The notes under the pieces: generated by a model
Database searches by the model: none
The model's input: the letters and a program-made list of their open reading frames with translations, nothing else
What the model was told of the DNA's origin: nothing
Made by a program: the position numbers and the translations under genes
Shown: piece by piece, positions 6,388-44,194 of the stretch
How positions within the stretch are numbered: the stretch's first letter is position 1
Layout: each line of letters begins with the position of its first letter
NCBI GenBank assembly: GCA_003389385.1
Contig: QQVM01000021.1
Span: forward strand, 73,920-137,919
From: Bacteroidota bacterium
Lineage (GTDB): Bacteria; Bacteroidota; Bacteroidia; AKYH767-A; 2013-40CM-41-45
DNA: 64,000 bases
Reading direction: 5' to 3'

Positions 6388-7206
6388 TTAGTACTGTTCC
6401 TTTTCATTAGGGAAGTCCCTGCTTTTTACATCCTGAATGTAACGTTCTGTCGCTGACTTGATATCGTCATATAGATTGAGATAGCGTCTCAGGAATCGAG
6501 GATTGAATTCATGTGTGATTCCCAGCATGTCATGCAGAACAAGAACCTGTCCGTCTACACCTGCACCTGCACCAATGCCAATAAAAGGTATTTTTATCTC
6601 AGTTGATACCTGTTCTGCAAGAGAAGCTGGTATTTTCTCCAGCACAACAGCAAAGCATCCGACATCAGCAAGCAGGTGAGCATCTTCAATAAGTCTTTCG
6701 GCTTCAGATTTCTCTTTGGCCCTCACTACGTATGTACCAAACTTGTATATTGATTGTGGCGTGAGTCCGAGATGACCCATCACCGGCACTCCGGCGGAAA
6801 GAATACGTTCTATTGAATCTTTGATTTCCAGTCCTCCTTCCAGTTTCACGGCATGTGCGCCAGACTCTTTCATGATTTTGATCGAGGAGTTAAGCGCCTC
6901 CTTGCTGTTCCCTTGGTAGCTACCAAACGGCAGATCAACTACTACCAGCGCTCTTTTCACTGCTCTTACTACTGAAGAGGCATGATATATCATTTGGTCC
7001 AGTGTAATTGGCAGAGTGGTCTCATGACCTGCCATGACATTAGATGCAGAGTCACCTACCAGGATAACATCAATTCCTGCATCATCTAGGATGCGGGCAG
7101 TAGAATAGTCATAAGCAGTGAGCATGCTGATTTTCTCTCCACGCTTCTTCATTTCCTGAAGTGTATGGGTAGTTACTTTCTTGTCTTCGGATTTTGCTAC
7201 GCTCAT
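6388..7206 (-). CDS. panB: 3-methyl-2-oxobutanoate hydroxymethyltransferase
   Basis: [48 protein letters not shown] is a strongly conserved PanB N-terminal core. Confidence 0.9.
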
Positions 7207-16260: not shown

Positions 16261-16296
16261 AAAAAGCGCCGTTCGATTTTGGACGGCGCTTTTTTT
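16261..16296. terminator. bidirectional rho-independent terminator between convergent genes
   Basis: AAAAA, then stem GCGCCGT (16266..16272) paired with ACGGCGC (16283..16289), then TTTTTTT (16290..16296). Confidence 0.75.
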
Positions 16297-16309: not shown

Positions 16310-17251
16310 TTAGGGCATTGGAACAGGCATTCGCTTGTTTTTTCTGAACTTATAAATTGTGTGTACAAGCACCGTGATAAGTATGATGATTGCTCCGATA
16401 TAAAAGCCTGAACTTAGTATTTTACCTTCTCCTGCAAACAAGACTGCCAGAATGATTCCGTAAACAGGTTCCAGATTGAGTGCAAGTCCAAGTGTATAGG
16501 CAGATACATGTCTCAATGCCTGCAGAGATAATATCCAGGTCAGGACTGTGCATACAAGGGAAAGTATTAACAAGTATATGCTGTCAGAAAGTGTGGGGAC
16601 GAATTGTTCTGTTTCCTGAATCATCATATAAATCGGGAACAGCAATGTGAGAAACAGCCATCCACTGGACAATTCAACCAGACTAATCGTCAAAGGTTCA
16701 TATCGTCCTGCTATCCTTTTATTGAATACAGAGAATAAAGCGCTGAGGAACGCGCTGATTACCCCTACAATTACACCCAGACCTGAACCCGTATCAGCAT
16801 GATAAATGATGAATATCCCACCTGCAGCCGCTACACTGAAAACAATTTCTGTATAATCAAATTTGCTGCGGTTGATTAAGGGTTCAATAACCGAGGAAAA
16901 TAACGCAATAGAAGACAGGCAAATCATCGCTACGCTGATGCTGGAAAGCTTGATAGATCCGTAAAAAGTTAACCAGTGAAGCATAACCAATATGCCGATT
17001 CCTCCGATATGTATCAACTCGCCACGTTTTAACTTTGGCATGCTCCTGCCGACATATAGCATGATGGCTATTACAATACTGCTGATCAGCATCCTGTACC
17101 ATACAATCAAACCTTCATTGAGTTGTATAAGTTTGCCCAGCAGCCCTGTGAATCCCCATAAAAATATAGCCGCATGCATTTTTAAAAATGCAGCTCTTAA
17201 TTGTAACTGATGATTGGAATCTGATGTCATTTGCCTGATGCGAAATAACAA
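16310..17251 (-). CDS. EamA/DMT-family transporter
   Basis: About 10 predicted TM helices in two EamA-like halves. The start is uncertain: Met at 17251, 17230 or 17179. Confidence 0.65.
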   Translation of the reverse strand: MLFRIRQMTSDSNHQLQLRAAFLKMHAAIFLWGFTGLLGKLIQLNEGLIVWYRMLISSIVIAIMLYVGRSMPKLKRGELIHIGGIGILVMLHWLTFYGSIKLSSISVAMICLSSIALFSSVIEPLINRSKFDYTEIVFSVAAAGGIFIIYHADTGSGLGVIVGVISAFLSALFSVFNKRIAGRYEPLTISLVELSSGWLFLTLLFPIYMMIQETEQFVPTLSDSIYLLILSLVCTVLTWILSLQALRHVSAYTLGLALNLEPVYGIILAVLFAGEGKILSSGFYIGAIIILITVLVHTIYKFRKNKRMPVPMP

Positions 17252-17266
17252 AAAATCAAATAGAGA

Positions 17267-17944
17267 TCAGAATGATTTTAATTCATTGTATAATTCAGCC
17301 AAAGGAAGACCTACTACATTAAAAAAGCTCCCCTCAATTTTTTCGATCAGCGGAATCCTTTTCACTTTGCCTGAATACTGAATTGCCTCAAACAGGTTTT
17401 CATTGCCGCTTTCTGCCATGAACTGAAGCTCGGCATCAGAACATGGATTGTAATTATCTGGCAGAGTCTCTTGAGCTCCATATGAACCTGCTTTGTCCAT
17501 TGGTTTAAAATCAGAAATATACTTTTCAATTGCATCCTCATTCAAATTCTGAAATTTCACATCGGACTTAACACTGAAACATTTCATGCCGGAATATGAT
17601 GTGATGCACACTCCTGTAAATACCTGATGAGTTTTACCCGAGAGTATCCTTAGCATTTTTCGACTTTCTTCAAGACCTTCAGGTTTATTCAATACTTGTC
17701 CCAAGATGCAAACTATAGTATCTGCCGTAATTAGAACCTCACGATTGGAAATGAAAGGCCGGATGGCTTTCGCCTTTTCCCTTGCAAGGTATTCTGCAAT
17801 TTCTCCTTCTTTCAGTGAATCAGGCCATTTTTCCTCAATAGGGACTACAACAATTCTGATATCAAGATTGATAGCTTCGAGCAATTGCTTTCTTCTCGGC
17901 GAAGCTGATCCCAGAACCAGTGAATAGTTTTTCAGCTCTTTCAT
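17267..17944 (-). CDS. maf: Maf-like nucleoside triphosphate pyrophosphatase
   Basis: LVLGSASPRRKQLLEAINL at the N-terminus and DKAGSYGAQE near the C-terminus. It is about 30 aa longer than the typical Maf. Confidence 0.7.
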   Translation of the reverse strand: MKELKNYSLVLGSASPRRKQLLEAINLDIRIVVVPIEEKWPDSLKEGEIAEYLAREKAKAIRPFISNREVLITADTIVCILGQVLNKPEGLEESRKMLRILSGKTHQVFTGVCITSYSGMKCFSVKSDVKFQNLNEDAIEKYISDFKPMDKAGSYGAQETLPDNYNPCSDAELQFMAESGNENLFEAIQYSGKVKRIPLIEKIEGSFFNVVGLPLAELYNELKSF

Positions 17945-17993
17945 ATTATTAATTCATGGGATGGCATAGGGAATACATCCATGCATTGAATCT

Positions 17994-18911
17994 TTATGTG
18001 AGAAAATAATAATAAAGAGGAATCATGCTCAAAACCCCTGCAAACATGAGGAACTTAGTATATAAACTGGCATAATAATAGTCTTTCTTTTCGCTTGCGC
18101 TGTATATAAGTGAAAACAATCCGGCGAAAGGAATCAAACACATTCCAAGTAAAAGCCAGAAACTCACAACACTGTTCGTGTAAAAATATTTATGCAAAAC
18201 GTATGTGAGCCCACTTGAGATAAGTAATGTCATTATTAGAAGTACAGCTTTAGTATTTCTGATGCCAATTGTATTTGCCAGACTTTTGCATTGGCCTGCT
18301 GTATCGCCTTCTGTATCCTCGATATCTTTGACAACTTCCCTTAGAAATGTAAGTCCAAAAGCGAAAATTGAATATACGAACAGGATGCCAATATTTCTGT
18401 AAAACTCAGGTTCAAATAAGCCAACCATGAACAAAGCCAGAAATGCAAGTGATGAAATAATCAGGTTACCGCTCAGGAGTTTCTTTTTAAAATAAGTAGC
18501 ATATACATAAAGTGAAAGTGCCGCAAAAATGTGTATTCCTGCCATAGCAGGCTTGCCGCTCACCCAGGCAATGTAAATTCCGGTTATAATGCCTGTGATG
18601 GTCAATATAGAATATAATTTCCTGCAAATAGATATGCTTATTTGATTGCCAGCAACATTCGACCCGGGCTTATTGATTTTGTCTATTTCAATATCCTGAA
18701 TGTCGTTGATTATATACCCGCCAGCAGCAATGAAAACAGTGCTCAGAACCAATAATGCAAAGTTGAATAATGACATGTGCTCTGGCATTTCTCCGGTAAA
18801 ATGCATTTCAGCTTCAAATGCAGGAAGTATTAAAAAAAATCTCACCAGCACTTGGGAAAGCCCAAGCAGAATCAGGTTTGGAATGCGTAATAGTTTGAAA
18901 AGGGCCAGCAT
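17994..18911 (-). CDS. UbiA-family aromatic/isoprenoid prenyltransferase (DGGGP-synthase-like motif)
   Basis: Eight or nine TM helices. The first Asp-rich motif is NDIQDIEIDKINKP, which resembles the NDxxDxEIDxINxP of archaeal-type digeranylgeranylglyceryl phosphate synthases. Confidence 0.7.
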   Translation of the reverse strand: MLALFKLLRIPNLILLGLSQVLVRFFLILPAFEAEMHFTGEMPEHMSLFNFALLVLSTVFIAAGGYIINDIQDIEIDKINKPGSNVAGNQISISICRKLYSILTITGIITGIYIAWVSGKPAMAGIHIFAALSLYVYATYFKKKLLSGNLIISSLAFLALFMVGLFEPEFYRNIGILFVYSIFAFGLTFLREVVKDIEDTEGDTAGQCKSLANTIGIRNTKAVLLIMTLLISSGLTYVLHKYFYTNSVVSFWLLLGMCLIPFAGLFSLIYSASEKKDYYYASLYTKFLMFAGVLSMIPLYYYFLT

Positions 18912-18938
18912 TTATTCCATTATTGTTGATATGATCTG

Positions 18939-19448
18939 TTAACCTGCGTATGGCCATTTGCCCTGACATCGCAAGACCTGCTCTATTATGTCACGGACAC
19001 AACCCGAACCGCCTTTGAATGGAGATATGTACATGCATAATCCTCGAATTTCAGGAGCGGCATCTTCAGGACAACATGGAATTCCGCATATTTTCATCAC
19101 TTCGTAATCAGGTAAATCGTCACCCATGTATATTGTTTCGTCCAGATTAATATTATTAGACAAATTAATCTCATTCAACCTTGCGACTTTATCATTTACT
19201 CCAAGATGCACTTCTGTAATTCCAAGTCCATTTAATCTCTGCCTGACGCTTTCGGATTTTCCCCCGGAGATGATGATAACCCGGAATCCATTTTCAACAG
19301 CGGTTTTTAAAGCGTAGCCATCTCTTATGTTCATGGTCCGGTGGAGTTCTCCATTCATCACAAAAAGATTACCATCAGTAAGAACACCGTCTACATCAAA
19401 AATAAAATTGCGTACAATCTTGAGTTTAGATTTGAAGTTTTCCTGCAT
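18939..19448 (-). CDS. HAD-IIIA (KdsC-family) phosphatase
   Basis: FIFDVDGVLTDG motif I and a GDDLPD motif. Length 169 aa. Confidence 0.75.
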   Translation of the reverse strand: MQENFKSKLKIVRNFIFDVDGVLTDGNLFVMNGELHRTMNIRDGYALKTAVENGFRVIIISGGKSESVRQRLNGLGITEVHLGVNDKVARLNEINLSNNINLDETIYMGDDLPDYEVMKICGIPCCPEDAAPEIRGLCMYISPFKGGSGCVRDIIEQVLRCQGKWPYAG

Positions 19449-19465
19449 ATTGCAATATTAAAAAA

Positions 19466-20239
19466 TTACAGGACTGGTCCGTTTAGATTTTGGATGCTCT
19501 TGCTAAGTAAAGCGTATATTTCCCTGAACTCATCTTGTCCCTTCAGCCATTTCAAATGATTGCTCACAGTTCCCGAGTCCCCTCTGGATGCTGGTCCTGT
19601 TTGAGCTTTTTTGGGTGAGATATGTTTGATTTTTTCCGCAGTCTGGCTAATTAGCGGTTTAAGAATCTCAAAATTAATTTTTCGTGATTTTAGCAGAGTG
19701 TCTGCAATCGTATACATATGATTGCTGAAGTTCGATGCAAAAACAGCTGATATGTGTATGAATTTTCTGTCATCTTCATTAATTTGATAAATCTTTTCAG
19801 ACACAGGACTTATAAGCTTTCTTATTTTATTTAAACTGGTTTTATTTGACCCCTCGATGCAAAAGGGAACATCATTCATTTTTACTTTTTCTGTTTTGGA
19901 AAAAGTCTGAACCGGATATAATACTCCGTAATTCGCGAATTTATTTTCAAATACACCTGCAGATACAGCCCCGGATGTATGCATGATTGTAAATTCTCCT
20001 GATGGAATGAGACGGGCATATTCCTTCACCGAATCATCGCGAACCATCAGGATGATCGCATCTGCATCAGTCCTGATATCATTGAAAGTGCAGCCATGAG
20101 AAGTTCGAAGTTTTTTAGCCAGCGACTTTACCAGCGATTCTGATCTTCCTATCACCTGAAGGATGTCGTGTCCTGATTTTTGTAACGCAGGTCCGAGATG
20201 GTTAGCGACATTTCCGGCTCCTGCTAGTACAACTTTCAT
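19466..20239 (-). CDS. Rossmann-fold NAD(P)-binding protein (DUF2520-like)
   Basis: MKVVLAGAGNVANHLG dinucleotide-binding motif. The ORF opens at 20326 but would then overlap ccmF, so Met 20239 is preferred. Confidence 0.6.
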   Translation of the reverse strand: MKVVLAGAGNVANHLGPALQKSGHDILQVIGRSESLVKSLAKKLRTSHGCTFNDIRTDADAIILMVRDDSVKEYARLIPSGEFTIMHTSGAVSAGVFENKFANYGVLYPVQTFSKTEKVKMNDVPFCIEGSNKTSLNKIRKLISPVSEKIYQINEDDRKFIHISAVFASNFSNHMYTIADTLLKSRKINFEILKPLISQTAEKIKHISPKKAQTGPASRGDSGTVSNHLKWLKGQDEFREIYALLSKSIQNLNGPVL

Positions 20240-20250
20240 GACAATGAATT

Positions 20251-22668
20251 TTAAGATAGTGATTTTGAAAAACGCTTTCTTACCGCAATGGCAGTGCCTA
20301 TAACCATTAATATGCAGCCCGTCCAAAGTATGTTGATTCCAGGGAAAATAATGGCTTTCATGATGACAAAATTCCGCTTGTTGGATTTCTTTTCCCTTAC
20401 GGAAATTTCAACTTTTCCGCTGACAGGGTCAATTTTCTGAAAACTGAATTTCAGTCCAAGTTCAGGGATTTCAGTGTCCTGATGAAACATGGTGTAGTCG
20501 CGGATGAGAAACAAAGGCAGCGTTTTGTATTGAGTCTTGTTCACATCTTCAACCCTCAGCTTCGCGCCTACAGCTATATCCATGTCATGCAGATGGTTTG
20601 ATTCGTGATCTATGTTTTTATCTAGACCTTCAAGAATCACAAAACTGTTGCTCGTAATAATAGTATCTCCAATTGCCATCTCCATAACTGTGGGTGACTG
20701 ATAAACTTCATCCTCATTGCTTCCGTCTTTTTTCTCAATTTCTGCGTATGTGATGTGTGTATAAATGTCTTTTGTGAGGTAATGTTTTGTTGCAGGCTCC
20801 GCCACATTTCCCATTCTTTCGTTCAACTGAATGAACGGAGCGAGTTCAAATACTTTTTTCTTTTCGCCAGTTTGCTCATCAGCTTTGAAGTATTCAATGT
20901 TATAATAGATGTGAATTCCTTCCTGTACTTTGCCGGCGTAGGTTACATAATATTCTCCCATCGGCAGCGTGTCTTTCTTGTGTTCAATGAGAATATTCTC
21001 CTTATTTGGAAAATCTTTTCCCAGGTCAACATTCTTTAAATTGCGAGATATGATTTCCTTCTTGGAATTTGATATAAGCGCTCCGCAAAGAAGGAGTGCG
21101 AATCCAATGTGTGCAATTGAAGAGCCTGCTTTATTGAATTTGGTTCCGGTAACCTTGATCATGTAACTTAGATTAGCAAGTACAGCGAAAACTGAAGCGA
21201 ATAATAAAATGTAATATGGTACAGGATAATCAATTCCAAGAAAGATTGCAGATATCAGTGTGATAACTAAAGAAGCAATTGCGGATGGTACCACGTTTTT
21301 TATAAACTGATTCCAGTCAGTTTGTTTGTACTTGAAGTGTTGTCCTATTCCAATGAGCAGGCATAGCAAGATTGCAACCGGTATCTGCCAACGGTTATAA
21401 TGATCAATCACATCTGCAGGTGGCGCAAGCTTTGTTCCGAATAATTTATTTATTACCGGAGTGGAAGTGGTAAAGGTTATTTGCAAACTTCCAATAACAA
21501 GTACAAGTATCCCAATGAACATCCAGAATTCTCTGGAGGCGAATTGCTCCTCAGGGGAATTATCTTTTAAATCCTTCCTTCTGATGAACATGAGAACCAT
21601 AGCAAGCACAAGAAAAAACAGCATGTATATCACAAGTTGTCCGCTCATGCCAAGATCAGTAAAGGAATGCACGCTTGAGTCACCAAGGATGCCACTTCGA
21701 GTCAGAAATGTAGAATACAGGATGAAGAAGAAAGTGATTGATGCCAGTACAATGGAAGAAATGATTGCGTTTCCCCTGTGTTTTTGAATCAGCATCACAT
21801 GCCCAAGTGCTGTCAGAGTCATCCATGGAACAAGTGAGGCATTTTCTACCGGATCCCAAGCCCAGAATCCCCCGAAACTGAGTGACTCATATGCCCAGGC
21901 CGCTCCCATGAGAATGCCTGTGCCTAATATCATTATTGCAAGGAAAGTCCAGGGTAAGGCCGGCTTTATCCATTCGGAGTATTTTCTTCTCAGCAGACCA
22001 GTGAGCGCAAAAGCAAAGGGAACCACTGTTAGTGCAAATCCCATGAAAAGGGTGGGAGGGTGGATAGTCATCCAGTAATTCTGGAGCAGAGGATTCAATC
22101 CACGGCCGTCTTCAATCCTGTTCAGGTAATCAGGAAATTTTATGAATGGAAGCTTAGCGAATTCAGGATGCTCACGAAGAAGAACAAAGGGGTTTGTTCC
22201 AATCTTCTGGCCAAGTACGATTACTCCCAGAATCATTGAAGTAAGAAAGACCTGAACCAGTGCCATAATTGACATGACACCGCTTTCCCATTCGCCGGTT
22301 CGAAACATCAGTATGGCACCAAGTATTATATGCCAGAACATCCATAGCAGAAAACTTCCTTCCTGGCCTTCCCAAAAACATGAAAAAATATAGCGTAGTG
22401 GCATGGTAGTGCTGCTGTGCTCCCATACATACAAGTACTCAAACCTGTGCTGAATGATTAAGTAAAAGATGATTCCAATTACGCCTAAAATGGAAACCGC
22501 ATGAATGCCAAAAGCACCTCGCGCGAGTTTTTTCCAGGAGGAATCACCAGTCCGCAGTGCAGCTAAATATGACAAACCAGATAGCAATGCGCTGGTAAAG
22601 CCCAGCATGATCAGGAAATTGCCAATCTTTCCCCAGAACAGTTGTTCACCTATATAGGCAATTTCCAT
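20251..22668 (-). CDS. ccmF: cytochrome c-type biogenesis heme lyase CcmF (extended form)
   Basis: WWD domain GGFWAWDPVENASLVPWMTLTALGHVML, multiple TM helices and conserved His residues. It is about 805 aa from Met 22668 (MEIAYIGEQLFWG) and has an extra C-terminal region ending in a TM helix. Confidence 0.8.
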   Translation of the reverse strand: MEIAYIGEQLFWGKIGNFLIMLGFTSALLSGLSYLAALRTGDSSWKKLARGAFGIHAVSILGVIGIIFYLIIQHRFEYLYVWEHSSTTMPLRYIFSCFWEGQEGSFLLWMFWHIILGAILMFRTGEWESGVMSIMALVQVFLTSMILGVIVLGQKIGTNPFVLLREHPEFAKLPFIKFPDYLNRIEDGRGLNPLLQNYWMTIHPPTLFMGFALTVVPFAFALTGLLRRKYSEWIKPALPWTFLAIMILGTGILMGAAWAYESLSFGGFWAWDPVENASLVPWMTLTALGHVMLIQKHRGNAIISSIVLASITFFFILYSTFLTRSGILGDSSVHSFTDLGMSGQLVIYMLFFLVLAMVLMFIRRKDLKDNSPEEQFASREFWMFIGILVLVIGSLQITFTTSTPVINKLFGTKLAPPADVIDHYNRWQIPVAILLCLLIGIGQHFKYKQTDWNQFIKNVVPSAIASLVITLISAIFLGIDYPVPYYILLFASVFAVLANLSYMIKVTGTKFNKAGSSIAHIGFALLLCGALISNSKKEIISRNLKNVDLGKDFPNKENILIEHKKDTLPMGEYYVTYAGKVQEGIHIYYNIEYFKADEQTGEKKKVFELAPFIQLNERMGNVAEPATKHYLTKDIYTHITYAEIEKKDGSNEDEVYQSPTVMEMAIGDTIITSNSFVILEGLDKNIDHESNHLHDMDIAVGAKLRVEDVNKTQYKTLPLFLIRDYTMFHQDTEIPELGLKFSFQKIDPVSGKVEISVREKKSNKRNFVIMKAIIFPGINILWTGCILMVIGTAIAVRKRFSKSLS

Positions 22669-22705
22669 ATGCTCTTGTACTATGAATAATAAGGTTTTTA
22701 TGAAT

Positions 22706-23107
22706 TTAATTGCGTGACATTGACTCGATTTCACTCTTCGGGTCATTGTACTTTGAAGGACACTTCATGAGGATGTCATGGGCCACAAACTCATCTCCTT
22801 CCATCTTTCCAATCACAACGATTTGTTCAGACTTTTCGAAATCCTGCGGCCTTGCCATATGCAAGAGGACTTTCTTTTCTATTCCCTCCATATCTTTCAT
22901 GTAAAAGGTAAAGAGATCAGCATCAACTTCAGGATTGTATTCCTGAGGTCTTTCCCTGACAAGAAGACCTACTACATGAAAGGTCTTATTGGGGCTTTTG
23001 AGTGCTGTAGCAAAGGAAGCGTAGGTGCTGGAATCTGCAACTGTGCTCAGAATAGCGGCAATGGAGATAGCGATAACTACTATTGCAATGATATGTTTGT
23101 TTTTCAT
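22706..23107 (-). CDS. ccmE: cytochrome c maturation heme chaperone CcmE, CxxxY variant
   Basis: N-terminal membrane anchor, an OB-fold body, and a C-terminal VAHDILMKCPSKYNDP. The Cys in CPSKY replaces the proteobacterial His of HxxxY. Confidence 0.75.
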   Translation of the reverse strand: MKNKHIIAIVVIAISIAAILSTVADSSTYASFATALKSPNKTFHVVGLLVRERPQEYNPEVDADLFTFYMKDMEGIEKKVLLHMARPQDFEKSEQIVVIGKMEGDEFVAHDILMKCPSKYNDPKSEIESMSRN

Positions 23108-23186
23108 TAAAAATCAACAGAATTCAATGCAAAAGTACGGATAATATCCGCACGACCTGTGAATTTTACGTGTAGATATTTTGGCA

Positions 23187-23420
23187 TTATGACTTTTTCT
23201 TTTGAGTTTTTTCAAGCTTTTTTAGTTTATTTTCAATCAGTAACAGATATGCCAAAATACCTATGAAAATGATGCTTAACACCGCGACTACAACATAGAT
23301 TTTTCCTTCGGATCTCATACGGTCGGCCATGTCTATGTCTTGTGAGAATGTATATTGAGCATGAAAAATCATAACGAAAAGCATAGCCATAACTCGGAAA
23401 ACTGATTTGTTATTTTTCAT
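23187..23420 (-). CDS. ccmD: CcmD-like small membrane protein (alternative CcmD family)
   Basis: Small single-TM protein (YVVVAVLSIIFIGILAYLLLIENKLKKLEK) between ccmC and ccmE. The start is uncertain, with Met at 23471, 23420 or 23390. Confidence 0.5.
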   Translation of the reverse strand: MKNNKSVFRVMAMLFVMIFHAQYTFSQDIDMADRMRSEGKIYVVVAVLSIIFIGILAYLLLIENKLKKLEKTQKKKS

Positions 23421-23454
23421 TCTGTGGGTTTTGGATAAAATTTGCTTAGTATAA

Positions 23455-24156
23455 TTATTGTATTTGATCATTCTCCAGTTGTAGTTTTCTTATTCTAACA
23501 AGTATGTTTGTGATCCAGGCTGAAAATAGAGCCCAGCCAATGACAGCCGGGTAAAACACCATCCTCATATTCTTATCCAAATCGTAAGTGCCAAAGCCAG
23601 GATTTCCTCCACTTCCCGGGTGAAGTGAATCAGTCATTCTTGGCAGTATCATGATGAATACTATCATAAGGGCAAATGCGAAGATCGCGTAAACTGCAGA
23701 TATTCGGGCCCTTTTGTGGAAGTCAGGGATAGAACCTCTTAATACTACATATGCTAAATACACAAGCATGGCAGAAGCGGCACCATTCAGTTTGGCATCA
23801 TTTACCCACCAAGCGCCCCAGGTGAATTTCGCCCACATTGCGCCGGTTAAGAGACCAAGAATTCCAAGAAATATTCCAGTGTTCACGCATTGTTCTGAGA
23901 TTATATCATTTTCAGCCTTTCCATTTGAAAGATATTTGATTGCATAGTACATTGAGGCAAACATGATTATGATCATAGAGAACCAGATGGTGACATGAAA
24001 AAATAAGTTTCTGATGCTCTCATTCAATATTGCCAGCCGAGGAACATCAACAAGAAATCCGCCAATGATTGAATATAAAACAAGCACTATAGAAAGCCAT
24101 TTCCACCAGCTGATTCCGCTGAGCAAACTGACTGTTGTGGTTGTGGGTGTATTCAT
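23455..24156 (-). CDS. ccmC: heme exporter protein CcmC
   Basis: Six TM helices and a WWD-like motif FTWGAWWVNDAKLNGAASAML. Confidence 0.75.
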   Translation of the reverse strand: MNTPTTTTVSLLSGISWWKWLSIVLVLYSIIGGFLVDVPRLAILNESIRNLFFHVTIWFSMIIIMFASMYYAIKYLSNGKAENDIISEQCVNTGIFLGILGLLTGAMWAKFTWGAWWVNDAKLNGAASAMLVYLAYVVLRGSIPDFHKRARISAVYAIFAFALMIVFIMILPRMTDSLHPGSGGNPGFGTYDLDKNMRMVFYPAVIGWALFSAWITNILVRIRKLQLENDQIQ

Positions 24157-24195: not shown

Positions 24196-24852
24196 TTATT
24201 CGCGCCAAAGATAAGGAAACAACAAATAAGCCATAGCACAAACCATGGCATTAAGACATGCCAATAAAACTACATATTGATAATTAACAGACCACGACAA
24301 GCCGTCCATTGCATTTTTCGACAGACGAATGGTTGTGATCAGCAGAGGAATCAAGATAGGAAAACTCAGTATTGACATCAGGGTTGAACTGTTTCCTGCC
24401 TTGGAAGCGATCGCACTTACCATTGTCAGCACAGAAGCGAATCCTGCACTTCCCAAGATGATGGCAACAAAAAACATGAGATGATCTTCGACAGGATTAC
24501 CAACGAACCAAGAGTAAAATCCGATGTTTATCATTGACAGTGCAAGCATCAATATCAGATTGTAAATTATCTTGGCAAGAATGATGGCCCTTGGATCCGA
24601 AAGGGTGTAGTAGTAGAGAATTCTTCCAGGGCTTTCTTGAATGAAACTTTTAGCAACGGCTGTCACACCTGCAAAGAGCTGAATGATCCAAAAGAGCGCA
24701 TTCCATGTAGGCGGATCTATGACCTGGCGAAATGACAGATAGCACACAAAAACAGTCGTAATCACATAGAGAAGCAGTCCCTGGAAAGCGTATTTTTGTT
24801 TCCATTCGCTTTTGATTTCTTTTCCAATAAAATTCCTGATTTCTCCCAGCAT
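24196..24852 (-). CDS. ccmB: heme exporter permease CcmB
   Basis: Six-TM ABC-2-type permease of CcmB size (218 aa). It heads the ccm array. Confidence 0.65.
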   Translation of the reverse strand: MLGEIRNFIGKEIKSEWKQKYAFQGLLLYVITTVFVCYLSFRQVIDPPTWNALFWIIQLFAGVTAVAKSFIQESPGRILYYYTLSDPRAIILAKIIYNLILMLALSMINIGFYSWFVGNPVEDHLMFFVAIILGSAGFASVLTMVSAIASKAGNSSTLMSILSFPILIPLLITTIRLSKNAMDGLSWSVNYQYVVLLACLNAMVCAMAYLLFPYLWRE

Positions 24853-24873: not shown

Positions 24874-26274
24874 TTATATTTTCCATGTACTTCCGGTTTC
24901 AGGTATTTCGATATTCCTGAATCCTTTTTCCATGAGCTTTTCTCTCCAGTCAACTTGTACCTGGTAATCTCCGTGGACGAGAAACATTCTCTTCACCAGT
25001 AATGAATTTTGACATGCAAGATATTCAAGCATTTCATTGTAATCGGCATGGGCGCTGTAAGAATTTAGAACTTCAACTCTTGCCTTTACTTTGTATTGCT
25101 TTCCAAAAATGCTGACCTCTTCGTTTCCGGCAGATAATCGTCCTCCAAGGCTTTCAGGGGTGCAGTAACCGACGATAAGGATTGTGGAATTCGGGTTTTC
25201 TATGTTATTTCTGATGTGGTGCTTAACCCGTCCGGCTTCTGCCATTCCTGAAGCGGAAATAATTATCATCGGTTCATCCAGATTGTTGAGCATAATTGAA
25301 TCTTCAGCTTTTCTGATATATACCAGATTGTTAAATCCGAATGGATTCGGGTCATTTTTTAATTCACGAATCATTCGTGCATTGAAACAGTCATGATGCA
25401 GTTGCATTACTCCCGTTGCATTCACAGAAAGGGGACTATCCACAAACACCCTAATATTGGGCAGTTTCTTTTGATTGTAAAGATTGTTCAACGCATAAAC
25501 AATTTCCTGAGTTCGGCCCAGACTGAACGCTGGAATAATCAGCTTTCCTTTTTTTTCGACACAGGTTTCATGAACAATTTCAAGGAGCTTACTTTCAGTA
25601 ACATCTTTTGGATCGTGCAGCCTGTTTCCGTATGTAGATTCGCAAATGATTGCATCCGCCTGCGGAAATGCTGATGGCCTTCGAAGTATGTCATCCTGAA
25701 GTCTGCCAATGTCTCCGGTAAAGAAGAGTTTAATTTCGCGGTTTTGATCTTTGATTTTCAGAAATACTCCAGCAGCTCCTATGATATGCCCTGCGTGTGT
25801 AAACATGAGCTCGACCCCATTCCTGATTTTATAACTTCTTCCGAATGGTATGGTATGAAAATAATTCATTGCCGTTTCCACGTCTTCCGCTGTGTAAATT
25901 GGCGTTAACTTTTCCAACCCACGCTCATGGCGCTTTTTGTTCAAATACTTGATGTCATACTCCTGAATGTGAGCCGAATCTTCGAGCATAATTGCACACA
26001 AATCGCGAGTTGCTGCTGTACAATATATTTTCCCTTCAAATCCTTGACGTACCAGATTAGGAATGTTTCCGGAATGATCGATGTGAGCATGTGAAAGGAT
26101 TAACAAGTCTACCTGCCTTGGCTCAAAAGGAAATTCCCTGTTCAAGGCATCTGTATCTGCGCCGCGGCCCTGAAACAATCCGCAGTCAAGCAATATCCTG
26201 GTGCCATCACTAAGGGTGAGCATGTGCTTGCTTCCGGTTACGGTTCTTGCAGCCCCAAAAAAGCTTATTTCCAT
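24874..26274 (-). CDS. MBL-fold beta-CASP ribonuclease-like hydrolase
   Basis: LSHAHIDHSG metallo-beta-lactamase motif with beta-CASP and RNA-specificity-like C-terminal domains. Met 26274 (MEISFFGAARTVTGS) is the likely start. Confidence 0.75.
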   Translation of the reverse strand: MEISFFGAARTVTGSKHMLTLSDGTRILLDCGLFQGRGADTDALNREFPFEPRQVDLLILSHAHIDHSGNIPNLVRQGFEGKIYCTAATRDLCAIMLEDSAHIQEYDIKYLNKKRHERGLEKLTPIYTAEDVETAMNYFHTIPFGRSYKIRNGVELMFTHAGHIIGAAGVFLKIKDQNREIKLFFTGDIGRLQDDILRRPSAFPQADAIICESTYGNRLHDPKDVTESKLLEIVHETCVEKKGKLIIPAFSLGRTQEIVYALNNLYNQKKLPNIRVFVDSPLSVNATGVMQLHHDCFNARMIRELKNDPNPFGFNNLVYIRKAEDSIMLNNLDEPMIIISASGMAEAGRVKHHIRNNIENPNSTILIVGYCTPESLGGRLSAGNEEVSIFGKQYKVKARVEVLNSYSAHADYNEMLEYLACQNSLLVKRMFLVHGDYQVQVDWREKLMEKGFRNIEIPETGSTWKI

Positions 26275-26388
26275 AAGAACCTGCAATGTAATAAACTATG
26301 CGTTTCTGTATATGATTTTTGTCCTTTGGGAATACTGAATGGCTAAATTTGCATATTCACAACATGATGTGATTAAACAAGAAGATAT

Positions 26389-27108
26389 ATGAAACTAGAT
26401 ATTTTGGCTTTTGGAGCTCATCCCGATGATGTGGAGCTCTCTTGCTCAGGCACTCTGATTAAACACATGAAAATGGGAATGAAAGTCGGAGTGGCAGATC
26501 TGACAAAAGGAGAACTCGGGACGCGAGGCAATGCCCTTATAAGGTTGAAAGAAGCAGAGACAGCATCAAAAATACTTGGCCTGTCAGTACGAGTTAATTT
26601 GGAGTTAGCAGATGGATTATTCGAAACAGGCACGGAGGAGAAAGTAAAAATTATCCGTGTCATCAGACAATTCCGACCTAGAATTGTGATGTGTAACGCT
26701 GTGTCAGACAGACATCCTGATCACGGAAGAGCCGGAAAGCTAGTTGCAGATGCATGCTTTTTATCAGGACTTTCAAAATTTGAAACCAGTGACCAGGAAG
26801 GAAAGCCTCAGGCTGCGTGGAGACCATCGCTTATCTTGCATTATATTCAGGATAGATATCTGAAACCCGGTTTTGTAATTGATATAACAGACGTTTGGGA
26901 TGAAAAAATGAAATCAATCATGGCATTTGAATCACAGTTCTTCAACCCGGAATCAAAGGAACCGGACACTCCGATATCTTCTGAATTTTTCCTAGACTTT
27001 ATTCGCAACAGAGCGATTGAATTTGGCAGACATGCTGGAGTTCCATATGCAGAAGGCTTCATTACGGAGAGCCATATAAAAGTAAACTCATTGGATAATC
27101 TTCTGTAA
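26389..27108 (+). CDS. PIG-L/LmbE-family N-acetylglucosaminyl deacetylase (BshB1-like)
   Basis: ILAFGAHPDDVELSCSGTL and HPDHGRAG zinc-binding motifs. Confidence 0.75.
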   Translation: MKLDILAFGAHPDDVELSCSGTLIKHMKMGMKVGVADLTKGELGTRGNALIRLKEAETASKILGLSVRVNLELADGLFETGTEEKVKIIRVIRQFRPRIVMCNAVSDRHPDHGRAGKLVADACFLSGLSKFETSDQEGKPQAAWRPSLILHYIQDRYLKPGFVIDITDVWDEKMKSIMAFESQFFNPESKEPDTPISSEFFLDFIRNRAIEFGRHAGVPYAEGFITESHIKVNSLDNLL

Positions 27109-36613: not shown

Positions 36614-37735
36614 ATGAGTAAAAAAGGAAGGGTATTAATGGCAATGAGTGGCGGAATAGACAGTTCCGTTGCTTCCGTATTACTTCATGAGCAAGGTTAT
36701 GAAGTTGTCGGAATGACCATGAAAACCTGGGATTATGCCAGTTCCGGAGGCAATAAGAAAGAAACAGGATGTTGTTCCCTGGATTCGATAAACGACGCAA
36801 GATCAATCGCAGTTGCAAAGGGTTTTCCACATTACATTATCGACATCAGGGAGGAATTCGGGAATCATGTGATTGACGATTTTGTGGATGAATATCTTTC
36901 CGGAAGGACTCCGAATCCTTGCGTCAAATGTAATACTCACATTAAGTGGGAGGCATTGCTGAAAAGAGCAGATATGCTGAGTTGTGAGTTCATCGCCACA
37001 GGCCACTATGCAAATGTGAGAGAAGAGAACGGACGATATGTTATCTCCAAAGGCAAGGATTCCTGGAAAGACCAAAGTTATGTGCTCTGGGGAGTAAGCC
37101 AGGAGTGTTTATCCCGAACCATTTTTCCTGTTGGGAATTTCCATAAATCAGAAATTCGACAAATGGCAGTGGAGATGGGACTTCACGAATTAGCCAATAA
37201 AAATGAATCGTATGAGATTTGCTTTATCCCGGATAATGATTACAGGTCATTCCTGAAAAGAAGAGTAGAGGGCATTGAGGAAAAGTTGGCGAATGGACTT
37301 TTTTTGGATAAAAATGGAAAAGTACTGGGTAAACACAGAGGCTATCCTTTTTATACAATCGGACAAAGAAAGGGCCTCGAAATTGCTTTAGGTGATCCAT
37401 ATTATGTGGTTGACATTAAGCCAGATGTCAATGTTGTTGTATTGGGTTTGTTTGAAGACTTACTTCAGCAGAAAATGTGGGTTCGGGATGCAAACTTTAT
37501 AAAAATAGAATCGTTAGAGGATGAAATGGAAGTGTTGACAAGGATTCGTTACAAGGATCCCGGCACTTACAGTACCATTAAAAAGTCGGAAGACCTGATT
37601 GAAGTGTCGTTTCACAAAGCGGTTTCAGCCATAGCACCCGGACAAAGCGCAGTTTTTTATGATGGTGATGATCTGGTCGGAGGCGGATTCATTCAGAGTG
37701 CAGTAAATGAAAACATCAGCAAGGCAGTACATTAA
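36614..37735 (+). CDS. mnmA: tRNA 2-thiouridine(34) synthase
   Basis: PP-loop MAMSGGIDSSVASVLL, catalytic Cys residues, and about 370 aa. Confidence 0.9.
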   Translation: MSKKGRVLMAMSGGIDSSVASVLLHEQGYEVVGMTMKTWDYASSGGNKKETGCCSLDSINDARSIAVAKGFPHYIIDIREEFGNHVIDDFVDEYLSGRTPNPCVKCNTHIKWEALLKRADMLSCEFIATGHYANVREENGRYVISKGKDSWKDQSYVLWGVSQECLSRTIFPVGNFHKSEIRQMAVEMGLHELANKNESYEICFIPDNDYRSFLKRRVEGIEEKLANGLFLDKNGKVLGKHRGYPFYTIGQRKGLEIALGDPYYVVDIKPDVNVVVLGLFEDLLQQKMWVRDANFIKIESLEDEMEVLTRIRYKDPGTYSTIKKSEDLIEVSFHKAVSAIAPGQSAVFYDGDDLVGGGFIQSAVNENISKAVH

Positions 37736-38408
37736 ATCAATTTTCATTCTCCTATTGATATCAGGAGTCTATTCTTCCTGTAAGAAAGACTCTCAAATCA
37801 TCAATTCAAATTCTTTTAATTATTTCCCGACTGCTAAAGGAACTTGGGTTGAGTATAACGTGGATTCGATATATCACGGAGAAAACGATAACAATAACGA
37901 CGATTCAGTCTATACCTTCAATTTTCAAATCAGAGAAATAGTGGATTCCACTTTTCTTGATGGGGAAGGCAGGGAAGTCCAGGTATTGATTCGATACAAA
38001 AGGATGAATAGTTCTGATGAATGGAGACTTGTGAGCGTTTGGACCCAAAGACTATCCTTAACCGGGGCATACAGGACAGAAGATAATATAACCTACCAAA
38101 AGCTTGCTTTCCCTATCAACTCAAGAATCTCATGGGATGGAAACGCAGCTAACATACTCAGTGAAGAATTGTATTCTTACGAGTCATTCCATGAAGAAAA
38201 TCTGGTGGGCAGCTTTTCCTTTGACTCCACTTTGACTGTACTACAGGTTGATGAGGACAATTTTGTAGAAAGAATTTTTGGAAAGGAAATCTACGCCGTT
38301 GGAGTAGGGATGATATTCAAGCAACGTGACGATCTTGGAAAAAGAAACGGACTTGTTGTAAAGGGCCTTGAATACAAAATGACCCTGCGGGATTATGGTC
38401 CTCGCTAG
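37707..38408 (+). CDS. hypothetical lipoprotein
   Basis: MKTSARQYIKSIFILLLISGVYSSCKKD lipobox. It overlaps the mnmA 3' end by 29 nt. Confidence 0.5.
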   Translation: MKTSARQYIKSIFILLLISGVYSSCKKDSQIINSNSFNYFPTAKGTWVEYNVDSIYHGENDNNNDDSVYTFNFQIREIVDSTFLDGEGREVQVLIRYKRMNSSDEWRLVSVWTQRLSLTGAYRTEDNITYQKLAFPINSRISWDGNAANILSEELYSYESFHEENLVGSFSFDSTLTVLQVDEDNFVERIFGKEIYAVGVGMIFKQRDDLGKRNGLVVKGLEYKMTLRDYGPR

Positions 38409-38437: not shown

Positions 38438-39925
38438 TTAATAGTACACAAGTCTGATTACATCAGCCAGGTATTTCGCATAACGGATCACTTGTCGGCT
38501 GTAACCATACTCATTGTCATACCAAACGTAGAGAACTAGGCTTTTGCTGTCCTTAGAAACGATAGTCGCCGGACTGTCGAAAATGCTTGCACAAGGATTG
38601 CCAACCAGGTCTGTTGAAACAAGTTCATTGGAAACTGAATATTGAATTTGTTCAACAAGCTTGCCCTGCAAGGCAGCATTGCGCATTACTTCGTTTACTT
38701 CATCCTTTGTTGTGCCTTTTTGGACTGTCAGATTTAGAATGGCAAGCGATACATCCGGAGTTGGAACTCTCACGGCATTGCCTGTCAGTTTTCCTGCAAG
38801 TTCTGGAATCACCTTTGCTACAGCCTTGTCTGCCCCGGTTTCAGTTATTACCATATTCAGTGCAGCTGATCTGCCTCTTCTGTACTTCTTGTGATAGTTG
38901 TCGAGCAGATTTTGGTCGTTTGTGTACGAGTGGATCGTTTCAATATGTCCTTTTTCAATTCCAAGTGCCTTGTGAATGACTGTAAGAACAGGTACGATCG
39001 CATTAGTCGTGCAAGAAGCTGCTGAGAAGACAGATTCTTTTTGTTTATCAAATGCAGATTCATTTACGCCATAAACTACATTCGGCACATCGCCTTTACC
39101 CGGAGCGGTGAGCAACACTTTTGAAACCCCTTTTGATTTCATATGGAGGCTGAGTCCGTCACGGTCCCTTACAACTCCTGTATTATCAATCACCAAAGCA
39201 TCATGGATGCCGTATGAGGTGTAGTCGACAGCGGCCGGGTCTGAGGAGGCAATCATATGAACCGTATGGCCGTTTACGACCAGAGCTTTGTTTTCATAAT
39301 CTTCTATTACAGTTCCAGGGAAGGCCCCGTGCACAGAGTCATTTCGAAGGAGATCTGCTCTTTTGGAAATATCATCATTACTGTTGCTTCTGGTTACAAC
39401 TGCACGAAGCCTGAGCTGTTCGCCTTTGCCGGCCTGAGCGATGAGTTCCCTCATCAGCAGTCTTCCAATTCTTCCGAATCCGTAAAGCACCACATCTCTC
39501 GGAATAATGTTTCTTTTTTCTTTACCAATGAATGTGGAGAATTTATCATGTATGAACTCTTCTGCCGATTTAAAGTTTTTCCTTTCAACAATCCATTCTG
39601 CATTCAGACGTCCTACATCAATTCTTGCAGGGGCAAGATTCAGCTTGTGCAACTCTTTGGCAAGCATGAGTGTGTCAAGGACATTAATTGGTTTTTTAAC
39701 TATTTGTTTTGCATACTGATGCAAGTTTAGGATTTCGCTGGCGCTTCGGTCAACCAGCTGGTTTCTGAAAAGTACCAGTTCCACGGATTTGTCAAACCAC
39801 AAGGAACCGGTTACATGAATCAGTGCAATTGCCGCCTTTTCAAGTTGTATCCAGTCTGAGAGTTCAGCCTCATACTTGTCTTTAAAATTCAATTTGGGAT
39901 CTGACTGTACGCTGTCTAATGCCAT
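38438..39925 (-). CDS. glyceraldehyde-3-phosphate dehydrogenase homolog, long form with about 130-aa N-terminal extension
   Basis: NAD-binding YGFGRIGR. Catalytic SAASCTTNAIVPVL, VHSYTNDQ and TGADKAVAKVIPELAGKLTG. Length 495 aa against about 335 for canonical GapA. Confidence 0.75.
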   Translation of the reverse strand: MALDSVQSDPKLNFKDKYEAELSDWIQLEKAAIALIHVTGSLWFDKSVELVLFRNQLVDRSASEILNLHQYAKQIVKKPINVLDTLMLAKELHKLNLAPARIDVGRLNAEWIVERKNFKSAEEFIHDKFSTFIGKEKRNIIPRDVVLYGFGRIGRLLMRELIAQAGKGEQLRLRAVVTRSNSNDDISKRADLLRNDSVHGAFPGTVIEDYENKALVVNGHTVHMIASSDPAAVDYTSYGIHDALVIDNTGVVRDRDGLSLHMKSKGVSKVLLTAPGKGDVPNVVYGVNESAFDKQKESVFSAASCTTNAIVPVLTVIHKALGIEKGHIETIHSYTNDQNLLDNYHKKYRRGRSAALNMVITETGADKAVAKVIPELAGKLTGNAVRVPTPDVSLAILNLTVQKGTTKDEVNEVMRNAALQGKLVEQIQYSVSNELVSTDLVGNPCASIFDSPATIVSKDSKSLVLYVWYDNEYGYSRQVIRYAKYLADVIRLVYY

Positions 39926-42729: not shown

Positions 42730-43242
42730 ATGAAACGTAAAAGCAACCAGGACATTTTCAGTTCTGTCCAAAACGGCGAAACAGAAATTTTGTTTTATCT
42801 CTGTGACAGGTATTTTTCTCATGCCCGCAAATGGTTGAGACGAAATGGAATGCCAGATGAATCAACACCGGAGTTTTTTGTGGATTTGATGTTGGATTTA
42901 TTGGAGGAAATCAGAATGCAAAACATGTCATCCAATGTGGAGTTTGAATCGCTGTTTTATAATACTTTGAAGAATTCGTTTGAAAATAGGAAAGGGAAAG
43001 GTGTGGAGTCGCCCGAATATTCTGATGACATCTTCAATAAAATAGCAGCAACATGTATTTCAAATTCCGATGAGAACACTCGTGATTTACTCAACAGCCG
43101 ATATGCCTTGAACCTGTCCTTTGAACAAATTGCTTCCCGATTCGATTTCAGCAATCCGGTTATAGCACAATTTGAAGTTAACAAGGCTATGAATCGTCTC
43201 CTTGATCGAATCAAAACAGAATCAAATCATAAGTCTGAATAA
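42730..43242 (+). CDS. divergent ECF-like sigma-70 family protein
   Basis: 170 aa. Region-2-like ILFYLCDRYFSHARKWLRRNG..PEFFVDLMLDLL and region-4-like HTH LNLSFEQIASRFDFSNPVIAQFEVNKAMNRLLDRI. Confidence 0.5.
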   Translation: MKRKSNQDIFSSVQNGETEILFYLCDRYFSHARKWLRRNGMPDESTPEFFVDLMLDLLEEIRMQNMSSNVEFESLFYNTLKNSFENRKGKGVESPEYSDDIFNKIAATCISNSDENTRDLLNSRYALNLSFEQIASRFDFSNPVIAQFEVNKAMNRLLDRIKTESNHKSE

Positions 43243-43243
43243 A

Positions 43244-44194
43244 ATGGGTCCTTCCCCGGAAGAGAGGTTGCTGATTGACCGATACCTTAAAGGTGAATTG
43301 AGTGGAATAGAGCTCCATGAATTCATGGAACGAATCGATGCAGATCCGGATTTCAGGCAGGAAGTAGTCCTACAGGACAAAGCTTCGTCTCAAATTAAAA
43401 TTTTATATAAAGCTAAGCTTAAGGAGCATTTGCTTGATTATATAAATTACAGAAAACCTCGCATTAATCCGGAGTTAAGGAATATTATTCTTTTCCTGCT
43501 TGTGCTTGGCACCGGAGTAATAATCTGGAACTACCCTGACTACAATGCAATAAAAACTGTGAGGAAGAATCTTTCCTTGTCACGATTTAAAAATAGTGAA
43601 CAAGTTAAAGATGCAAGTGAAAATACAAGAGACTTGAAAAAAGTGACTGAACATCAAAGTGGAAATCAAAAGGGAAATAACATTGAAGTGATTTCAGATT
43701 CTGTCTCTGAGATTGACGGATTGACTGAATCTGAACAATCATCTGCCGACAGCGTAGTGATTACACCAGCGGTGGGTGATGGGACTTTTATGGTCAGGCA
43801 GGATGAGCTGAAAGAAACCAAAACTATCCGAATTCAAAACCTTGCAGAGCAGACGGAGCAAAATTATGCAAACGTAACTTCTGAGAGCAGTGCATTAGAT
43901 GCTTTGAATAAAATGGCCCATTCATCCGGTTTACCACCGGTTGAAAGCATGAAGAAATCATCAGAGTCCATTGAAGTGGAGTTCTGGACTTCTCCGGTCA
44001 ATTACAGAGGTTACAAGTTAAGCCGCAGCAAACTGATATTGTTTGGAATTGATGAATCTGCTGATGTTGAACTTTTATCTTTTAACGAGCAATTGTATCT
44101 TAAACTCAGAAACGAATATTATCTGATCAGAAATAACGAGACATTTAATAATTTCCAAAGAGTGAACAAGCCGGAAACATCATTCAGGCAATAA
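43244..44194 (+). CDS. putative anti-sigma factor (single-pass membrane)
   Basis: Start ATG overlaps the upstream stop (TAAAATGG). The N-terminal EERLLIDRYLKGELSGIELHEFMERIDADPDFRQEV is typical of Bacteroidota anti-sigma N-domains, followed by the TM helix ILFLLVLGTGVIIW. The C-terminal periplasmic domain is unassigned. Confidence 0.5.
   Translation: MGPSPEERLLIDRYLKGELSGIELHEFMERIDADPDFRQEVVLQDKASSQIKILYKAKLKEHLLDYINYRKPRINPELRNIILFLLVLGTGVIIWNYPDYNAIKTVRKNLSLSRFKNSEQVKDASENTRDLKKVTEHQSGNQKGNNIEVISDSVSEIDGLTESEQSSADSVVITPAVGDGTFMVRQDELKETKTIRIQNLAEQTEQNYANVTSESSALDALNKMAHSSGLPPVESMKKSSESIEVEFWTSPVNYRGYKLSRSKLILFGIDESADVELLSFNEQLYLKLRNEYYLIRNNETFNNFQRVNKPETSFRQ

Follow-up and report, generated by a model that had tools for sequence, protein, structure and literature searches.

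DGGGPS-like homologs have already been described in Bacteroidota (PMC3533463, PMC6431249, PMC7852524): sequences from Bacteroidetes branch among the crenarchaeal DGGGPS (PMC3533463), and all 12 surveyed phyla of the Fibrobacterota-Chlorobiota-Bacteroidota (FCB) group carry homologs of both GGGPS and DGGGPS, most of them without a glycerol-1-phosphate (G1P) dehydrogenase (PMC6431249). A GGGPS-DGGGPS pair from Cloacimonadota, the only case in which adjacency of the two genes is reported, gave rise to unsaturated archaeol-phosphatidylglycerol in Escherichia coli (PMC7852524), and a Bacteroidetes GGGPS is active in vitro, although its biological role in bacteria is described as unknown (PMC7888582). 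With respect to cytochrome c biogenesis, the CcsBA protein of Bacteroides thetaiotaomicron is a studied model of System II (PMC13645880). Here we analyze a stretch of 64,000 nucleotides (hereafter the window) from a Bacteroidota bacterium (assembly GCA_003389385.1, contig QQVM01000021.1, positions 73,920 to 137,919), in which the ccm genes of the System I cytochrome c maturation pathway run without a break into genes for a DUF2520 protein, a KdsC-family HAD phosphatase, a DGGGPS-like prenyltransferase of the UbiA superfamily and a Maf protein. We consider it fairly probable that this arrangement represents an ordinary ccm string and an old block containing the DGGGPS-like enzyme, which were joined when one cytochrome c maturation system was swapped for another.

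A conserved gene block and the slot upstream of it

The genes in question lie on the minus strand of the window. As stated in the original prediction, ccmF (20251..22746) is followed in the same direction by genes for a Rossmann-fold plus DUF2520 NADP-type oxidoreductase (19466..20239; Pfam DUF2520, 131 bits), a KdsC-family HAD phosphatase (18939..19448), a UbiA-superfamily prenyltransferase (17994..18911), a Maf nucleotide pyrophosphatase (17267..17944) and an EamA-family (DMT) transporter (16310..17230; two EamA repeats in Pfam), which are separated by gaps of 11, 17, 27, 49 and 36 nt, respectively. The EamA gene starts at 17230 if ATG is used and at 17251 if TTG is used. The prediction was correct as to these genes but set the beginning of the string too late: it begins ~6 kb further upstream, at a beta-CASP RNase gene (26286-24874), and comprises 11 co-directional genes over ~10 kb in the order beta-CASP gene, ccmB, ccmC, ccmD(alt), ccmE, ccmF, DUF2520, KdsC, UbiA, Maf and EamA. 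A misassembly at the junction of ccm and DUF2520 was ruled out, because this organism has been assembled three times separately (GCA_003388485.1, ERZ869940 and SRR7515932) and independent gene callers agree on gene content and order in all three.

One genome per species was scanned with an alignment of the UbiA protein, which yielded 80 loci from Bacteroidota (designated below by L-numbers), and the proteins of the window were placed on these loci both by tblastn and by an independent clustering of open reading frames (ORFs). The comparison showed that: 1) In 62 of 70 informative loci Maf is the next gene after UbiA, at a median distance of 1.5 nt, and the two genes often overlap in the relatives. 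2) KdsC is located directly upstream of UbiA in 51 of 77 informative loci, with a median gap of 37 nt, and is absent from the block in several loci (e.g. L005, L013, L048, L058 and L063). 3) Of 72 informative loci, 54 have DUF2520 on the upstream side of UbiA, and its median distance to KdsC is 12 nt. The string DUF2520-KdsC-UbiA-Maf is retained in the same order, on the same strand and with very short gaps in Flavobacteriales, Chitinophagales, Sphingobacteriales and Bacteroidales, its occurrences including Flavobacterium, Winogradskyella, Xanthomarina, Altibacter, Chitinophaga, Terrimonas, Puia, Arcticibacter and Paludibacter, metagenome-assembled genomes (MAGs) labelled as Rikenellaceae and Prolixibacteraceae, and further the loci L084, L085 and L086. 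It was not found in the loci of Spirosoma, Spirosomataceae and Cyclobacteriaceae, and the ORF clustering revealed no further gene family that is conserved around UbiA in these loci. EamA, which follows the block in only 6 of 65 informative loci, those of the closest relatives, is a recent, lineage-specific add-on. The expectation that the neighbors of UbiA would be conserved together with it is thus borne out for DUF2520, KdsC and Maf, in several orders, but not for EamA or for the ccm genes. Our searches of the literature found no description of a conserved DUF2520-KdsC-UbiA-Maf context or of a neighboring cytochrome c slot. In L084 (JGI 3300005096), a MAG with the label Chlorobi bacterium, DUF2520-HAD-UbiA-Maf precedes a Peptidase_S46 gene, an arrangement also seen in L086 and L010; either this label may be incorrect, or the block may not be confined to Bacteroidota.

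The position directly upstream of DUF2520 can be assessed in 53 loci, 16 of which carry System I, 16 the System II protein CcsBA and 21 neither; both systems together were found in none of the 53. In L085, a genome of 5.9 Mb, the gene divergent from DUF2520 encodes a 1039-aa fusion of ResB and CcsA, that is, the System II synthase CcsBA, and the 16-member ORF cluster that occurs upstream of DUF2520 in the Flavobacteriaceae loci represents the same protein. CcsBA is encoded on the strand opposite to the block and in some loci lies 1.5-4 kb away from it. The gap between ccmF and DUF2520 is 11 nt in the window and has a median of 7.5 nt over 14 loci. The loci without System I or System II within ~8-10 kb comprise all those of Chitinophagaceae and Bacteroidales together with two of Flavobacteriaceae. 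The outer flank is common to both arrangements: the order in L085 is PIG-L(-), GSHPx(-), CcsBA(-), followed by DUF2520(+), KdsC, UbiA and Maf, and that in L005, L009, L041 and L075 is PIG-L(-), GSHPx(-), followed by ccmB-F(+), DUF2520(+) and onward to Maf. The window retains the PIG-L side of this flank in the form of a divergent gene for a PIG-L family deacetylase (26389..27108, plus strand; Pfam PIG-L), and the UbiA protein of L085 is closest to those of the ccm-linked loci. Since no locus has both systems and the flanks are identical, the most suitable reading of the ccm/DUF2520 junction is that one maturation system was exchanged for the other in place. The alternation of ccmBCDEF and CcsBA at one slot can be followed in L085, L005, L009, L041, L075, L033 and L064, and in the literature we found no report of the two systems alternating between identical flanks. 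The idea that the ccm linkage is a quirk of one young lineage was rejected, as the ccm-linked loci, all of which are uncultured MAGs, are scattered over a neighbor-joining tree of the UbiA proteins.

We propose that the region would consist of two layers, namely an old Bacteroidota block of DUF2520, kdsC, the DGGGPS-like ubiA and maf, and a cytochrome-c-biogenesis slot directly upstream of it. An ancestor would have had a cytochrome c biogenesis gene beside the block, after which one system would have replaced the other in place, so that the slot would now hold CcsBA on the opposite strand in Flavobacteriaceae and L085, and ccmBCDEF on the same strand in the organism of the window and several uncultured lineages of Bacteroidia. 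Because the ccm operon shares the orientation of the block, the two would now form one string; the run of ccm into DUF2520 would be a by-product of the replacement, with read-through transcription now linking both parts.

The suggestion of the original prediction that the array is an operon appears plausible, as the genes lie on one strand with short gaps and a single terminator at the end. A strong intrinsic terminator hairpin (16262..16295; A-run, GC-stem and T-run; RNA fold -18.2 kcal/mol, z -3.18) is located directly 3' of EamA and is common to this gene and a convergent gene for a protein sorted by the type IX secretion system. In the gaps from ccmF to EamA, the terminator scan detected no hairpin, and no -7 box of the Bacteroidota type (TAnnTTTG) is present; over 10 kb this box has 4 matches, against 5.2 expected by chance. 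Matches in a sigma-70 promoter scan were no commoner than in shuffled sequences, and were disregarded given that this consensus is not applicable to Bacteroidota. Within the string, only the 79-nt stretch between CcmD_alt and ccmE (23108-23186) is ambiguous: it contains an 8-bp GC-rich hairpin and then TTTTG, overlapping a -7 box (TACTTTTG) that lies 23 nt before the ccmE start, and might serve in attenuation or as an internal promoter. Because the gaps are short, those between ccmF and EamA have neither a hairpin nor a -7 box, and one terminator follows EamA, the simplest reading is that a single transcript probably starts ahead of ccm, or ahead of the beta-CASP gene, and runs through EamA.

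Affinities of the UbiA-superfamily protein

The class of the UbiA protein was assigned from its ranking among curated hidden Markov models (HMMs), a profile ranking against PDB and a fold search. Its membership in the superfamily is clear from Pfam PF01040 (78.8 bits against a cut-off of 34.2, residues 44-276). Among the NCBIfam models five of DGGGPS type come first, with 195, 192, 94, 93 and 65 bits, followed by chlorophyll synthase (ChlG) with 44 bits, EboC with 39 and ubiA_other with 21.6, and there is no match at E<=0.01 to the menA, ubiA_proteo (4-hydroxybenzoate UbiA) or cyoE/ctaB models. A sequence search of PDB gave a single match, 6m31, the DGGGPS of Methanocaldococcus jannaschii (MjDGGGPS; E 4.5e-17), and a profile built from 20 relatives of UbiA scored 116.6 bits on 6m31 over its full length, as against 63 on ChlG and 18 on DPPR synthase and AfUbiA. 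The AlphaFold2 model of the protein is composed entirely of helices (pLDDT 92, pTM 0.89), and in a Foldseek search it matched only structures of the UbiA fold, with 6m31 and 7bpu at ranks 1 and 2 (E 1.5e-9, TM 0.64-0.69, 26-28% identity for the predicted model) and AfUbiA, ApUbiA and UBIAD1 ranked after DGGGPS; UBIAD1 and ApUbiA are distant fold matches only, with 12-14% identity.

The catalytic positions are consistent with this ranking. The aspartate-rich motif that had been singled out from the sequence (NDIQDIEIDKINKP) corresponds to residues 69-82 of the protein, and both the N69-D70-x2-D73-x3-D77 motif and the D196-x2-D199-x3-D203 motif are invariant in the 20 relatives, as are Y137 and K142 (Y-x4-K) in the family alignment. 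The residues N69, D73, D77, Y137, K142, D196, D199 and D203 align with N62, D66, D70, Y125, K130, D180, D183 and D187, which are the motif residues of MjDGGGPS (PMC9385802).

Identity of the protein is 54% to the nearest relative and 30-39% to members from named genera. With HMM ranking, profile, PDB and Foldseek in agreement, the proposal that it is DGGGPS-like rather than of the UbiA, MenA or CtaB type holds. This identification is correct, and of a kind already known for Bacteroidota. Based on sequence and model comparisons we classify the protein as a predicted member of the DGGGPS-like clade of FCB-group bacteria, with a putative DGGGPS activity. Most likely it would catalyze a DGGGPS-type transfer, in which a polyprenyl group (probably geranylgeranyl) would pass from its diphosphate to the free hydroxyl of a glyceryl-phosphate ether lipid, the latter being supplied by a GGGPS encoded elsewhere in the genome. 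Many UbiA relatives from Bacteroidota are deposited as hypothetical proteins or generic prenyltransferases.

Alternative readings of the block

Several points weigh against the interpretation of the region as an ordinary ccm string joined to an old block with a DGGGPS-like enzyme: 1) The UbiA protein falls below the NCBIfam equivalog cut-offs, with 195.2 against 278 for NF009512 and 192 against 288 for NF009513. Seven of 10 relatives tested are likewise below the cut-offs (190-272 bits), and three proteins of Flavobacteriaceae type pass NF009512 with 382-397 bits; the two models are narrow and miss most members outside Flavobacteriaceae, which is why the protein bears the name "hypothetical protein" in GenBank. 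2) DGGGPS activity has been demonstrated for no member from Bacteroidota. 3) No GGGPS/PcrB, polyprenyl synthase or G1P dehydrogenase was found in the 64-kb window by Pfam among ORFs of at least 120 aa. 4) Co-transcription is predicted from the sequence. 5) Four genes without an evident relation to each other are kept at tight and conserved distances, which may just as well reflect a common pathway. 6) Two unrelated cytochrome c systems adjoin the block in 32 of the 53 loci, which can be read as selection for the neighborhood.

One alternative is that the UbiA protein has the ancestry of a DGGGPS-like enzyme but acts on another acceptor, as do ChlG, EboC/UbiA-297 and further clades of UbiA, in which case the cell would make no diether lipid of the archaeal type. 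Within the UbiA superfamily, enzymes often change their acceptor (PMC9385802), the identity to MjDGGGPS is low, the scores lie below the equivalog cut-offs, and the window has no GGGPS, co-localization of GGGPS and DGGGPS being reported for Cloacimonadota only (PMC7852524); the function of the Bacteroidetes enzymes is moreover described as unknown (PMC7888582). However, comparisons of sequence, profile and fold all place DGGGPS first, with ChlG and the aromatic prenyltransferases far behind, and homologs of GGGPS and DGGGPS co-occur in FCB phyla with similar tree topologies (PMC7852524). We therefore regard a change of acceptor as possible but rather doubtful.

The original prediction went further in proposing that prenylated ether-lipid or quinone-like chemistry could be coupled to respiratory assembly, for which we found no direct support. 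In its general form this idea holds that the DGGGPS-like enzyme, or the whole block, is tied functionally to cytochrome c maturation or respiratory assembly, for instance by providing an isoprenoid lipid for the heme machinery. It can draw on the tight ccmF-DUF2520 junction, on the scatter of the ccm-linked loci over the UbiA tree rather than in one young clade, and on the retention of the neighborhood with the non-homologous CcsBA, a pattern expected if adjacency is under selection. Yet the block does not depend on ccm: 21 of the 53 informative loci (40%) keep it without a cytochrome c biogenesis neighbor, and ccm is upstream in just 16. Furthermore, CcsBA of Flavobacteriaceae is encoded on the other strand, and some loci have it at the distance given above, so that it is not co-transcribed with the block; the thioredoxin-fold GSHPx on the other flank is a more obvious partner of either system; and the loci are not phylogenetically independent, so that one ancestral arrangement and one swap could suffice to account for the pattern. 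A functional link of the block to respiration is hence weakly supported, and we hold it to be improbable.

Finally, DUF2520, the KdsC-like protein, UbiA and Maf might constitute one dedicated pathway, comprising a reductase that produces a polar acceptor, a prenyltransferase, a phosphatase that would trim the product and a nucleotide step, with the acceptor possibly being glycerol-1-phosphate in bacteria that lack G1P dehydrogenase. The order, strand and near-zero gaps that are kept in several orders are compatible with such a pathway, as is the fact that FCB bacteria with GGGPS and DGGGPS are mostly without a known G1P dehydrogenase (PMC6431249), and DUF2520 proteins are Rossmann NADP oxidoreductases without an assigned substrate. 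The affinities of the individual proteins argue otherwise. The HAD protein passes the KdsC cut-off (TIGR01670, 118 bits against 106.95), has the DxD motif D18-V-D20 in FDVDGVLTD, and fits the KDO8P phosphohydrolase structure 4hgn far best, with 156 bits against 74-76 bits for the KDN9P-type chains 4hgr and 3e81. The structure 4hgn we take to be that of the Bacteroides thetaiotaomicron enzyme. Hence, the HAD protein is most likely a genuine Kdo-8-phosphate phosphatase of lipopolysaccharide synthesis, and KdsC is, as noted, missing from the block in L005, L013, L048, L058 and L063, among others.

The DUF2520 protein has 3d1l (BF3122) as its best PDB match (E 1.9e-53) and is a predicted ortholog of Bacteroides fragilis BF3122, of the NADP oxidoreductase family. 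In a profile search of PDB with DUF2520 only Rossmann-domain similarity to pyrroline-5-carboxylate reductases was found and no functional assignment, and the names of its relatives in public sources give no function. The family is widespread outside GGGPS-bearing bacteria, which likewise speaks against a place in a dedicated lipid pathway, and one of its members, PanG, is stated at second hand to be a ketopantoate reductase (PMC4572677). In the window a panB gene for ketopantoate hydroxymethyltransferase is located at 6388-7206, at 12 kb from DUF2520, whose surroundings showed no gene of the PanE type within the 64 kb. The Maf protein passes its family cut-off as well (TIGR00172, 141 bits against 117.15; Pfam Maf, 172 bits). 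It contains a 34-aa lineage-specific insertion at residues 163-196 (17357-17458), DNYNPCSDAELQFMAESGNENLFEAIQYSGKVKR, which is common only to L001, L002, L003, L012, L014, L020 and L041. As conserved operons of unrelated housekeeping genes are common, we think there is little chance that the four genes form a single pathway. The combined proposal, in which the block would be a dedicated pathway for a Bacteroidota isoprenoid ether lipid, DUF2520 the missing reductase for the glycerol-phosphate acceptor in bacteria lacking G1P dehydrogenase, and the lasting proximity to either maturation system a sign that heme export or the assembly of respiratory complexes requires the lipid, we consider very improbable. 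We treat the block here not as a single pathway but as a conserved operon of housekeeping or envelope genes.

Neighboring genes and comparison with known systems

The ccm part of the string is itself of a recognizable kind, with ccmB, ccmC, ccmD(alt), ccmE and ccmF each above the Pfam gathering score. The genes, all on the minus strand, are ccmB for the System I heme exporter permease (24196..24852; Pfam CcmB, 38.6 bits against a cut-off of 24.9), ccmC (23455..24156; Pfam Cytochrom_C_asm, with a match to TIGR01191 ccmC below its cut-off), the gene for the small membrane protein CcmD_alt (23187..23471; Pfam PF20077, 67.5 bits), which measures 94 aa as an ORF and 67 aa in the NCBI call, ccmE for the heme chaperone (22706..23107; Pfam CcmE, 38.8 bits) and ccmF (Pfam Cytochrom_C_asm and CcmF_C over residues 128-562). 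The ccmF product is unusually long, with 831 aa as an ORF and 805 aa from the second ATG, and has a C-terminal extension of ~270 residues beyond the CcmF_C match to which Pfam assigns no domain. None of ccmA, ccmG and ccmH adjoins the ccm operon in the window, in which a thioredoxin-like gene and an AhpC/Redoxin gene are present elsewhere. The gene 21 nt upstream of ccmB encodes a hydrolase of the beta-CASP/MBL-fold RNase type (24874..26286, minus strand; Pfam Beta-Casp, RMMBL and Lactamase_B), and this position is likewise occupied in L001, L003, L021 and L075. At some distance (45681-47726) the window encodes a multiheme cytochrome c protein of 681 aa (Cytochrome_C7, MtrC/MtrF-like) with paired CXXCH motifs and C-terminal TPR repeats, which is a probable client of the Ccm system.

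Further features of the window include a GAPDH-like protein of 495 aa (38438-39925) with an N-terminal extension of ~140 aa before the NAD-binding domain, and four ORFs of 170-462 aa (42730-44194, 50691-52079 and 37707-38408) without a Pfam match at E<=0.001, one of which, of 233 aa, has only a faint match to YitT_membrane. Searches for repeats and Rfam families gave nothing in the ccm-EamA region and a single tRNA elsewhere in the window. The organism is a member of an uncultured lineage of Bacteroidia; the top 120 matches of its DnaK, with 83-89% identity, all come from MAGs of Bacteroidota or Bacteroidia and give no placement at the level of order.

The role of the GGGPS and DGGGPS homologs of Bacteroidota is a question in the debate on the "lipid divide", and the block around the DGGGPS-like gene supplies concrete candidate genes for functional work in DUF2520, Maf and the KdsC-like phosphatase. 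The slot upstream of it offers an apparently clean case of the replacement of one maturation system by another at a single site, which informs the exchange of Systems I and II in evolution.

In terms of described enzymes, the UbiA protein of the window belongs to the same family as the FCB DGGGPS homologs of Lombard (2012), Coleman (2019) and Villanueva (2021), with archaeal DGGGPS as its best matches and a Bacteroidota genome as its host. It differs from them in its divergence, which places it below the NCBIfam cut-offs, and in its name: its relatives are called geranylgeranylglycerol-phosphate geranylgeranyltransferase by NCBI, whereas this copy is a "hypothetical protein", and searches of the literature with that product name returned nothing concerning Bacteroidota. 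With MjDGGGPS (6m31, 7bpu) it shares the fold and the N/D-x2-D-x3-D, Y-x4-K and D-x2-D-x3-D motifs, but at only 26-28% identity and in a bacterium with ester lipids, for which the GGGPS partner and the G1P supply are putative. The Cloacimonadota pair (Villanueva et al. 2021) likewise includes an FCB DGGGPS homolog and is the sole FCB pair for which formation of archaeol-phosphatidylglycerol was shown in E. coli; there the synthase genes are adjacent, whereas in the window no GGGPS occurs within 64 kb and the neighbors are DUF2520, KdsC and Maf. EboC (UbiA-297) of the ebo cluster in Flavobacteria likewise belongs to the UbiA family and is encoded in a gene cluster that is conserved in Bacteroidota, but represents a different clade (39 against 195 bits), with eboA-E as its neighbors rather than DUF2520, KdsC and Maf (PMC9235831). 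As regards cytochrome c biogenesis, the window resembles System I in its recognizable ccmB, C, D(alt), E and F, and departs from it in the unusual length of ccmF and in having no adjacent ccmA, ccmG or ccmH; in relatives of the window the same slot is taken by the CcsBA-type fusion of System II.

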